Below, piece by piece: positions 42,153-44,403 of a DNA stretch of 64,000 nt; the stretch's first letter is position 1; each line of letters starts with the position of its first letter. The position numbers were made by a program, and so were the translations under genes. Under the pieces are notes generated by a model. It did no database searches. It was not told the origin of the DNA and saw nothing but the letters and a program-made list of their open reading frames with translations. The stretch is from Escherichia phage vB_EcoM-S1P5QW, in sequence record OL956808.1; one strand, written 5' to 3'.

Positions 42153-42198
42153 ATTTATGTCTCGTCGTGAGACGCTCAGTTCTTTATTAGGGACTGAT

Positions 42199-42807
42199 AT
42201 GCATTTTTATCTTTATAAAATAACAAATAAAATTAATAATAAAATTTATATTGGTGTGCATTCTACCGAAAATTTAGATGATGGATATATGGGTTCTGGT
42301 AAATTATTAAAAAGAGCCCAAGATAAATATGGTATAGAAAATTTTTCTAAAGAAATATTAGAGTATTTTGATGATAAAGAATCTATGCTTGAAGCCGAGA
42401 AAAATATTGTCACAGAAGAGTTTTTAAATAGACCAGATGTGTATAATTTAAAACTTGGAGGTGAAGGTGGATGGGATCATATAAATAATTATCCTATGAC
42501 AGATCAGCAACGCGAATTAATTTCATTGGGTGTTAAAAAGGCACATTCTAACGGAAAATTAAAAGGATGGTCTTCAAATGGATTAATGAAAAATGGCTTT
42601 GCTGGTAAAACTCATTCTCAAGAAGCTAAACGTAAAATAGCAAAAGCAAACGAAGCAAAAGTTTCTGCGAATGAAAGAAAAAGAAGAATAGAAATTTCTA
42701 AATTATATGATTTTTCTAAGCGGGGTGAATTATCTAAATATGCTAAGCATATTGGCGTAAGTCATACTCAAGCAAAAAGAATTCTAAATCAAATTAACAA
42801 TATATAA
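42199..42807 (+). CDS. segB: GIY-YIG homing endonuclease, SegB-like
   Basis: GIY-YIG signature FYLYKITNKINNKIYIGVH...YMGSG; track ORF (42157) begins just after tRNA-Gly, ATG at 42199 has an RBS; inside the tRNA cluster as T4 segB. Confidence 0.75.
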   Translation: MHFYLYKITNKINNKIYIGVHSTENLDDGYMGSGKLLKRAQDKYGIENFSKEILEYFDDKESMLEAEKNIVTEEFLNRPDVYNLKLGGEGGWDHINNYPMTDQQRELISLGVKKAHSNGKLKGWSSNGLMKNGFAGKTHSQEAKRKIAKANEAKVSANERKRRIEISKLYDFSKRGELSKYAKHIGVSHTQAKRILNQINNI

Positions 42808-42813
42808 ATATTT

Positions 42814-43235: not shown

Positions 43236-43349
43236 AATTTGTGACAACTGTCACATTAATATCTACTTGACGCGATTATCGGGGTTGAACTGATCACTCT
43301 TCTCTTAATTTCGTGTGAAGACATCTTGATTGTTGGAGTAGGTATTAAT

Positions 43350-43429: not shown

Positions 43430-43505
43430 CGGGGCATAGCTCAGAAGGAAGAGCAAGGACCTTCTAAGTCCTGGGTCGTAGGTTCGATCCCTACTGCCTC
43501 GACCA
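43430..43505 (+). tRNA. tRNA-Arg (anticodon UCU)
   Basis: Acceptor cggggca/tgcctcg, anticodon stem aggac/gtcct with loop ctTCTaa, encoded CCA. Confidence 0.8.
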
Positions 43506-43850
43506 AACAAGAAGCCGGGTCGCTACCGGTAAGTCGTCGGACTGATGTTCCCTGGGTAAGGACTGGCATTAACAAATCTTTACGATCGGTTAATGCCCCC
43601 TTACATCACAGCAGAAACGGCGCACCGAATTATCGATTCGAGGAAATATCTTTGCCGTAAGCCGAGTAGCGTTTTTGACGGAACGTTCGGATATGGTCGA
43701 GATATGGCCTTTTAAAATATTAAGTAGCGTCAACTGCTTAATAACCGGGTTCGAATCCCGGCGTTTCGTACAAACACTTGCCTTAGCAGGTGGAACCCCG
43801 ACAAGGTTGCCGCAAGGCTTAGCCCCGACCGAAAGGTTGGGGCTTTTTAG
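43506..43850 (+). ncRNA. stable small RNA region (T4 RNA C/D-like) ending at an intrinsic terminator
   Basis: 345 nt without a credible ORF right after tRNA-Arg; tRNA-like T-arm ccgggttcgaatcccgg at 43745-43763; ends with hairpin plus T-run 43822-43850; T4 has two stable RNAs here (recalled). Confidence 0.4.
43822..43850 (+). terminator. intrinsic terminator (copy 1)
   Basis: agccccgaccgaaaggttggggc + TTTTT; near-identical copy at 44377. Confidence 0.7.
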
Positions 43851-43894
43851 TATAAATAAGTATATTAAAACCACGAATTAAAACAGGAAATAAG

Positions 43895-44368
43895 ATGAAA
43901 TCATATGCTCAATTTTTAAATGAAGCGGTGTTAAATGAAGCATCTAGCACCGAAATTCAAGCCGTTGCAAAAGCTGCCATTGCCGCGGGTAAATATTCCT
44001 ATAAAGATGCTTCTGATGAGTCACGATTCCAATTTGCTCGCGATATGAAAGCGGAAGGATTTACAGGGAATGCAGTTAGTATGGCCTGGAAAAGTCTAGT
44101 TGCTACTGGAGCTGCTTTTGCAAAGGCTTCGGGTAAACCTGCTCCTAAAGCAGATCCTAAAGTCACACAAGAGAAAAATATTGTTAAAGGAATTATCTCC
44201 AAATATGAAGCTATCCTTAAAGAGCTTTTAGTAATCAAAACTGAAGGCCAAAAACTGGCTCGTGCTTATAGTTTCAAAGATAACCCACATGCTCACTCTC
44301 TTGAGTATGTTGAAGACATCCAAAAAATTATTAAAGACCGCATTTGGTCTGCTAAACAAATCAAATAA
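43895..44368 (+). CDS. candidate packaged internal protein with CTS-like N-terminus
   Basis: 157 aa; N-terminus MKSYAQFLNE-A resembles T4 CTS MKTYQEFIAE; Ala/Lys-rich; flanked by near-identical terminators. Confidence 0.55.
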   Translation: MKSYAQFLNEAVLNEASSTEIQAVAKAAIAAGKYSYKDASDESRFQFARDMKAEGFTGNAVSMAWKSLVATGAAFAKASGKPAPKADPKVTQEKNIVKGIISKYEAILKELLVIKTEGQKLARAYSFKDNPHAHSLEYVEDIQKIIKDRIWSAKQIK

Positions 44369-44376
44369 CATTCTTA

Positions 44377-44403
44377 GCCCCGACAGAAAGGTTGGGGCTT
44401 TTT
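44377..44403 (+). terminator. intrinsic terminator (copy 2)
   Basis: agccccgacagaaaggttggggc + TTTTT after the CTS-like gene. Confidence 0.7.

Follow-up and report, generated by a model that had tools for sequence, protein, structure and literature searches.

The DNA analysed is a 64,000-nt stretch (hereafter the window) of Escherichia phage vB_EcoM-S1P5QW (OL956808.1), which is a Tequatrovirus (T4-like) genome, and the segment under study occupies positions 43506-43850. On the plus strand, ARAGORN and Rfam detected a T4-type cluster of tRNA genes in the order Gln, Leu, Gly, then Ser, Thr, Met(CAU), Tyr, Asn, His and Arg. The non-coding sequence that follows extends from 43506, just after the end of tRNA-Arg at 43505, to 43894, the next credible gene starting at 43895, while position 43850 is located just past a terminator. 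The locus contains the following features.

43430..43505, plus strand: tRNA-Arg(UCU) with an encoded CCA, last tRNA of the cluster and directly 5' of rnaD (ARAGORN; Rfam tRNA, 63.9 bits)
43507..43626, plus strand: rnaD, predicted orthologue of T4 species 2 RNA, 120 nt (alignment, ends transferred from the T4 annotation)
43627..43632, plus strand: spacer GAAUUA between rnaD and rnaC
43633..43770, plus strand: rnaC, predicted orthologue of T4 species 1 RNA, 138 nt, with a predicted tRNA-like four-way junction (alignment to T4; consensus structure)
43771..43820, plus strand: conserved 3' trailer outside the annotated mature RNAs, with small hairpins, e.g. CACUUGC-CUUA-GCAGGUG (fold)
43821..43848, plus strand: intrinsic terminator of the tRNA/rnaD/rnaC unit, AGCCCCGACC-GAAA-GGTTGGGGCT plus TTTTT (10 bp, 7 of them G-C)

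T4 specifies two small stable RNAs, rnaD and rnaC, whose sequences date from the 1970s and which figure in its reference annotation. Coordinates were mapped by alignment to T4 (NC_000866; rnaD at 71053-71171 and rnaC at 70908-71046) and to the RB6 and GiZh annotations, and in all three genomes the two genes are annotated at positions that align to 43507-43626 and 43633-43770 of the window. The order tRNA-Arg, rnaD, rnaC, terminator is common to the window, T4, RB6 and GiZh. Over 138 of 138 nt, rnaC displays 97.1% identity to its T4 counterpart, and rnaD displays 87% identity to that of T4 (over 118 nt) and 92.5% to that of RB6. When the 345 nt served as a BLAST query for 50,697 phage records, 805 records matched with 90-99% identity, almost all of them T4-like phages of Escherichia, Shigella, Yersinia and Salmonella.

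Segment 43506-43850 thus very probably holds the orthologues of T4 rnaD and rnaC, with a conserved trailer on their 3' side and, beyond it, the terminator of the tRNA unit; the ends of both RNAs in vB_EcoM-S1P5QW are predicted by homology from T4. An earlier note on this DNA had described a non-coding stretch after tRNA-Arg that likely specifies stable small RNAs akin to the two found beside the T4 tRNAs, an identification that holds by homology because alignment to the annotated T4, RB6 and GiZh genes lands on rnaD and rnaC. The T-arm-like ccgggttcgaatcccgg and the strong terminator to which it pointed are both present, the former at 43745-43761 as part of rnaC and the latter at 43821-43848, where a G+C-rich hairpin followed by a T run is found as in intrinsic (Rho-independent) terminators. 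The last ca. 80 nt (43771-43850) lie outside both annotated mature RNAs and consist of trailer and terminator, a distinction absent from that note. Conservation at 90-99% in ca. 800 records, together with the rnaC fold and its compensatory pairs (see below), argues that the conserved stretch is more than chance; as a genome feature, the rnaD/rnaC pair is already described and routine.

When compared to T4 rnaC (species 1 RNA, 139 nt), which it resembles in position, trailer, terminator and predicted fold, the window copy is one base shorter in the junction A-run and carries three substitutions, two of which fall in the P3 stem with pairing kept. Likewise, T4 rnaD (species 2 RNA, 119 nt) starts one base after the CCA of tRNA-Arg, as in the window, and has an identical 5' hairpin, closing helix and internal loops; differences are concentrated in the apical hairpin, and the 3' end reads ...CACCA in T4 and ...CACCG in the window. 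The upstream tRNA-Arg(UCU) at 43430-43505 is quite unlike T4 tRNA-Arg in sequence while rnaD and rnaC downstream are conserved, which indicates that the tRNA cluster is mosaic.

The structure of rnaC was derived from an alignment of 21 distinct homologues from Tequatrovirus, Karamvirus, Tegunavirus and uncultivated viral contigs. It predicts a tRNA-like (cloverleaf-like) four-way junction in which two additional hairpins join an acceptor-like stem and a genuine T-arm.

43634..43640, plus strand: 5' strand of the acceptor-like stem, CGAUUCG (7 bp), with two central U.U mismatches, pairing with 43762-43768
43647..43704, plus strand: long hairpin P2, closed by AGG (43641-43) and CCU (43708-10), with the apical loop UUGAC at 43675-43679
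43718..43743, plus strand: hairpin P3, 10 bp, with GUCAA in its loop at 43729-43733; 8 of the 10 stem pairs covary
43745..43761, plus strand: T-arm CCGGG-UUCGAAU-CCCGG, i.e. ccgggttcgaatcccgg; two stem pairs covary
43762..43770, plus strand: 3' strand of the acceptor-like stem, CGUUUCG, plus UA; CAAAC comes next in the genome, and CCA is thus not encoded

Structure prediction, proposed by the earlier note as a check, indicated that the rnaC part folds far below shuffled controls (z = -4.2). Of the 47 pairs in the consensus structure, 18 are changed on both sides among the 21 homologues, and 96% of cells are paired; none of 500 shuffles was as good and slid controls were ca. 40% paired. Both the acceptor stem and the T-arm are backed by compensatory changes. 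At the third pair of the acceptor-like stem, 10 sequences have A-U and 11 have G-C, and both U.U positions are Watson-Crick in three Tegunavirus-type sequences. A T-loop resembling UUCGAAU occurs in most homologues. The rnaC of Kanagawavirus and Klebsiella phages combines an unrelated P2 stem with an identical loop and otherwise keeps the architecture. The bases following the stem are U-ACA in the window and T4, U-UCA in Tegunavirus and U-CCA in Klebsiella phages. The 5' end mapped in T4 corresponds to position 43633, 1 nt upstream of the 7-bp stem defined by covariation, which leaves an uncertainty of one base in the assumed RNase P site.

Two other partners were considered for the 3' strand of the acceptor stem. 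Pairing with GAAACG at 43614 was rejected, as this segment falls in the 3' end of rnaD and 43634-43640 is the true partner, and pairing with the internal ACGGAACG is possible in Tequatrovirus but is not kept in Karamvirus or Tegunavirus.

With a canonical tRNA (class II or tRNA-Sec-like, with a long extra arm), rnaC shares a 7-bp stem stacked beside a 5-bp T-stem, the UUCGAAU loop, a four-way junction and a location in a tRNA operon, and some homologues encode U-CCA. In contrast to a canonical tRNA, it is twice as long, has two U.U mismatches in its stem and scores below Rfam tRNA thresholds. In the window it displays neither an anticodon arm nor a D-arm, and no CCA is encoded; lacking the anticodon arm and the encoded CCA, rnaC cannot decode. 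In one lineage represented by three homologues, the T-loop has changed from UUCGAAU to UGCAUGC together with a change from UGG to UCG in the junction (alignment columns 122-128 and 75-76), a single event that hints at an elbow contact of the D-loop/T-loop type.

The P2 loop UUGAC (43675-79) is exactly complementary to the GUCAA of the P3 loop (43729-33), and this complementarity is found in all 26 sequences compared (21/21 in the main alignment and 5/5 in a second lineage). Two compensatory changes were detected, one from C-G to U-A in three Tegunavirus-type sequences and one from A-U to G-C in Klebsiella phages, which results in UUGGC/GCCAA. In the second lineage, formed by Edwardsiella phage PEi20 and Klebsiella phages, both loops are retained although the P2 stem is unrelated. 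These data suggest that the P2 and P3 arms are locked by a 5-bp loop-loop (kissing) contact, UUGAC/GUCAA; with only two compensatory events, which are independent, and loops retained after stem replacement, this candidate contact is supported but unproven. No mention of it was found in the literature searched, the older T4 literature being outside that scope.

For rnaD, 17 homologues were aligned and seven variants were folded individually. A common plan emerges, with a short A-rich leader, a hairpin of 5-6 bp, a UAAG linker and an irregular rod that ends in a variable apical hairpin.

43514..43530, plus strand: 5' hairpin with a 5-bp stem and the 7-nt loop GUCGCUA (MFE folds; Alifold pairs 11-27 to 15-23, compensatory at two pairs)
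43533..43539, plus strand: 5' strand of the closing helix, GUCGUCG, pairing with 43618-43625 (CGGCGCAC)
43554..43604, plus strand: apical hairpin, hypervariable (alignment; folds of seven variants)
43618..43625, plus strand: 3' strand of the closing helix, CGGCGCAC, followed by C and then G (A in T4, giving ...ACCA)

The core of the closing helix, CGUCG/CGGCG, is invariant in all rnaD homologues, including the Karamvirus, Jiaodavirus and Vequintavirinae versions, and the asymmetric internal loop, GACUGA/GAAA, is invariant in Tequatrovirus and Dhakavirus. Within the rod, a U-A pair of a short helix is flipped to A-U in some homologues, and the apical hairpin has been swapped wholesale for unrelated hairpins between lineages. 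The hairpin-plus-rod fold recurs in the seven divergent variants. Since fold energies are unremarkable in most of them (z from -0.2 to -1.2), the case for an rnaD structure rests on conserved architecture and not on stability. The GACUGA/GAAA loop was also compared by inspection with the kink-turn and sarcin-ricin consensus; it fits neither, and no such claim is made.

Matches to rnaC were found in 744 phage records, with 95-99% conservation in 680 records, and matches to rnaD in 734. The two RNAs are separable, each being missing next to the other in some genera. In JS98-type Dhakaviruses, rnaD is joined straight to the trailer and rnaC is precisely absent; in Karamvirus, Tegunavirus, Kanagawavirus and Klebsiella phages, rnaC occurs alone beside or between tRNAs. 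In Karamvirus, the AAUUA leader also lies directly 5' of rnaC, there after the CCA end of a tRNA. Divergent rnaD-like elements occur elsewhere in Karamvirus and Jiaodavirus genomes, in Karamvirus within the tRNA cluster; they were detected by a search with the short Vequintavirinae version, and an initial reading of Karamvirus as devoid of rnaD was withdrawn. In a Providencia phage, rnaD is located between tRNA-Arg and tRNA-Ile, and in a few Vequintavirinae phages a tRNA is followed by a short rnaD. Enterobacteria phage IME341 (Dhakavirus) has an extra mini rnaD of 65 nt (hairpin, AAG linker and a stem closed by CGUCG/CGGCG) between tRNA-Arg and the full rnaD, at position 436-500 of the extracted locus. 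No cellular counterpart of either RNA was found among 5,426 genomes of E. coli and 185,579 species-representative genomes of bacteria and archaea, which points to a phage-specific origin.

The 50-nt trailer is nearly invariant in Tequatrovirus and Dhakavirus and stays beside rnaD where rnaC is absent. Its segment 43771-43806, ACACUUGCCU(U)AGCAGGUGGAACCCCGACAAGGUU, which is near-invariant in both genera, is better conserved than rnaD and may serve as a signal for processing, as a third RNA element or as a site acting at the DNA level.

A late-promoter-like TATAAATA is found at 42803-42810, 4 nt before tRNA-Ser. In the proposed scheme, rnaD and rnaC would be co-transcribed with the tRNAs from this motif at 42803 to the end at 43848, and the tRNA-processing machinery would cut them out of the tRNA precursor. 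An endonuclease would cut the A-rich linker after the CCA of tRNA-Arg to yield the 5' end of rnaD, RNase P would generate that of rnaC by acting on the acceptor/T-arm minihelix, and exonucleases would trim the 3' ends back to the terminal helices, the compact folds then conferring stability on both RNAs. These putative steps rest on general knowledge of E. coli tRNA operons and on T4 work of the 1970s-80s. The TATAAATA motif at 42803-42810 fits the late accumulation reported for the T4 RNAs, whose assignment has been validated by Northern blot, with T4 rnaC reported as a discrete stable species of about 140 nt in infected cells (PMC9697503).

Few records annotate rnaC and rnaD (GiZh, RB6, RB68 and T4), and in most of the ca. 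800 related records the region is blank or carries hypothetical proteins or a false tRNA-Lys. These annotations, and the match of two ORFs to the PHROG families phrog_28391 and phrog_24262 (function unassigned), would speak for small proteins encoded by ORFs 43590-43874 (minus strand), 43675-43881 (plus strand) and 43593-43715 (plus strand), a reading that we consider extremely unlikely. The first two of these ORFs, of 94 aa with a GTG start and of 68 aa with a TTG start, are mutually antisense and neither is preceded by a Shine-Dalgarno sequence, as the earlier note had remarked when it saw no credible ORF in the stretch, a view confirmed by the breaking of the frames by a 1-nt indel between the window and T4/RB6. 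The long frames are split in T4, RB6 and SHFML-26, whereas the window lacks one base in an A-run, and the long ORFs exist in the window only because of this 1-nt deletion. Moreover, substitutions track RNA base-pairing, and in other genera the homologous sequence is flanked directly by tRNAs. The ORFs lying over rnaD/rnaC that match phrog_24262 and phrog_28391 are 43593-43715 (plus strand) and 43675-43881 (plus strand), and because the frames are not conserved, both families most simply appear to be collections of repeated mis-annotations over RNA genes.

It is equally hard to credit that the 3' two-thirds of rnaC (43678-43771) form a functional tRNA-Lys(UUU), even though ARAGORN reports a 94-nt tRNA-Lys there, two phage records annotate one and the T-arm is real. 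The D-arm and anticodon stem proposed by ARAGORN are mostly mismatched and have no supporting covariation, its acceptor 5' strand shows no compensatory change and has one pair unpaired in 10 of the 21 sequences, and the "anticodon" reads UUU, UUG, UCU or others among homologues. In addition, the mature T4 RNA begins 45 nt further upstream. The Rfam tRNA models (RF00005; clan CL00001) gave no match within 43506-43850 at the gathering score, and at E<=10 only tRNA-Sec appeared, with 17 bits for a cut-off of 47. The ARAGORN call was therefore rejected as one that reuses the real T-arm and P3, its remaining stems being devoid of covariation. At gathering and permissive thresholds Rfam returned no family for rnaC or rnaD, and no tmRNA was found by the ARAGORN tmRNA mode or by Rfam.

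On laboratory hosts, T4 remains viable when its tRNA region is deleted, and any role of rnaC and rnaD would hence be accessory. An acceptor/T-arm module that tRNA enzymes recognise and that is joined to non-tRNA parts is the general idea that rnaC has in common with the tRNA-like domain of tmRNA, with YrlA (a bacterial Y-RNA-like RNA) and with viral tRNA-like structures. Unlike tmRNA, it has no tag reading frame and no G3.U70 pair, its third acceptor pair being A-U or G-C, and unlike YrlA it lacks a terminal stem for Ro binding; within 43506-43850, Rfam matched neither tmRNA nor YrlA. The likeness is one of functional analogy only. As for its function, rnaC may mimic tRNA so as to occupy or titrate a host or defence factor that binds tRNAs, a possibility held with low confidence.

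In turn, rnaD may be a conserved scaffold that presents a fast-evolving apical hairpin with a host-specific target. In three of three lines of a T4-like phage evolved on E. coli ECOR34, an identical single SNP arose within rnaD, and the virulence index of the evolved phage rose from 0.17 to 0.98 (PMC12685909); this shared SNP is an experimental hint at a host-specific role of rnaD. Taken jointly, rnaC would be a tRNA-shaped decoy, built of the acceptor/T-arm minihelix and the two arms locked by the kissing contact, that binds and neutralises or diverts a host tRNA enzyme or a tRNA-targeting immune nuclease and the apical hairpin of rnaD would decide success on particular strains, a combination that must be regarded as speculative and improbable as a whole. 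If true, the pair would make RNA a determinant of host range or anti-defence in the best-studied of phage families.

The main rival to the tRNA-mimic reading is that neither RNA has a trans-acting function, both being stable by-products or cis-acting parts of the precursor (platforms for folding or processing, or protection of the 3' ends of upstream tRNAs) and rnaC being a degenerate former tRNA. This is a doubtful but serious possibility, given that rnaC and rnaD always occur inside or at the end of tRNA clusters, that the only tRNA parts retained by rnaC are those required for processing (acceptor stem and T-arm), and that each RNA is missing beside the other in some genera. It also agrees with the literature searched, in which no function is reported for rnaC or rnaD (PMC3014915, PMC9697503, PMC12685909), the early processing papers (species 1 RNA, p2Sp1) being outside that scope. 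However, rnaC has remained 95-99% conserved in 680 records while the adjoining tRNA-Arg has been replaced by a different sequence, the P2 and P3 loops are conserved and co-varying although irrelevant to tRNA processing, and one and the same rnaD SNP came under selection three times on a single host (PMC12685909).

A role as regulatory small RNAs that base-pair with mRNAs of host or phage via conserved single-stranded loops would account for the invariant unpaired segments, namely GACUGA/GAAA in rnaD and the junction UGG..UUUAAAA in rnaC, and the term "small regulatory RNAs" is used loosely in papers (PMC9697503). Such a role is nonetheless quite improbable, as no target is known and the best-conserved loops of rnaC pair with each other and are not free.

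The practical value of the identification lies in annotation: most of the ca. 800 related records carry blanks, phantom ORFs or a false tRNA-Lys, two PHROG families appear to be affected and no Rfam family was matched. Scientifically, the gain is modest but real, since what rnaC and rnaD do has been a question for 50 years. Handles for mutagenesis and deletion tests are provided by the covariation-backed fold and candidate kissing contact of rnaC, by the invariant core and swappable tip of rnaD, by the independent placement of the two RNAs within tRNA clusters and by the published convergent adaptive SNP in rnaD.

Other observations concern the surroundings of the two RNA genes. Downstream, a second copy of the terminator occurs at 44376-44403 with one mismatch relative to that at 43821-43848, and the two copies flank a 157-aa ORF (43895-44368; phrog_2280, function unassigned) that looks like a gene cassette inserted between repeated terminators. 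The late-promoter motif TATAAATA also occurs at 43851, just past the first terminator. In T4, the downstream gene at the corresponding place is e.8 and not the 157-aa ORF. Upstream, an ORF of 216 aa resembling GIY-YIG/NUMOD3 homing endonucleases (42157-42807) lies between tRNA-Gly and tRNA-Ser, in the place occupied by tRNA-Pro in T4, RB6 and GiZh, and ARAGORN called no tRNA-Pro anywhere in the 64-kb window. Finally, an unannotated gap of 114 nt (43236-43349) that starts with a hairpin, UGUGACAACUGUCACA, separates tRNA-Asn from tRNA-His; tRNA-His is absent from the GiZh and RB6 clusters, in which tRNA-Asn directly precedes tRNA-Arg, and the gap may be part of an inserted tRNA-His module or another small RNA.
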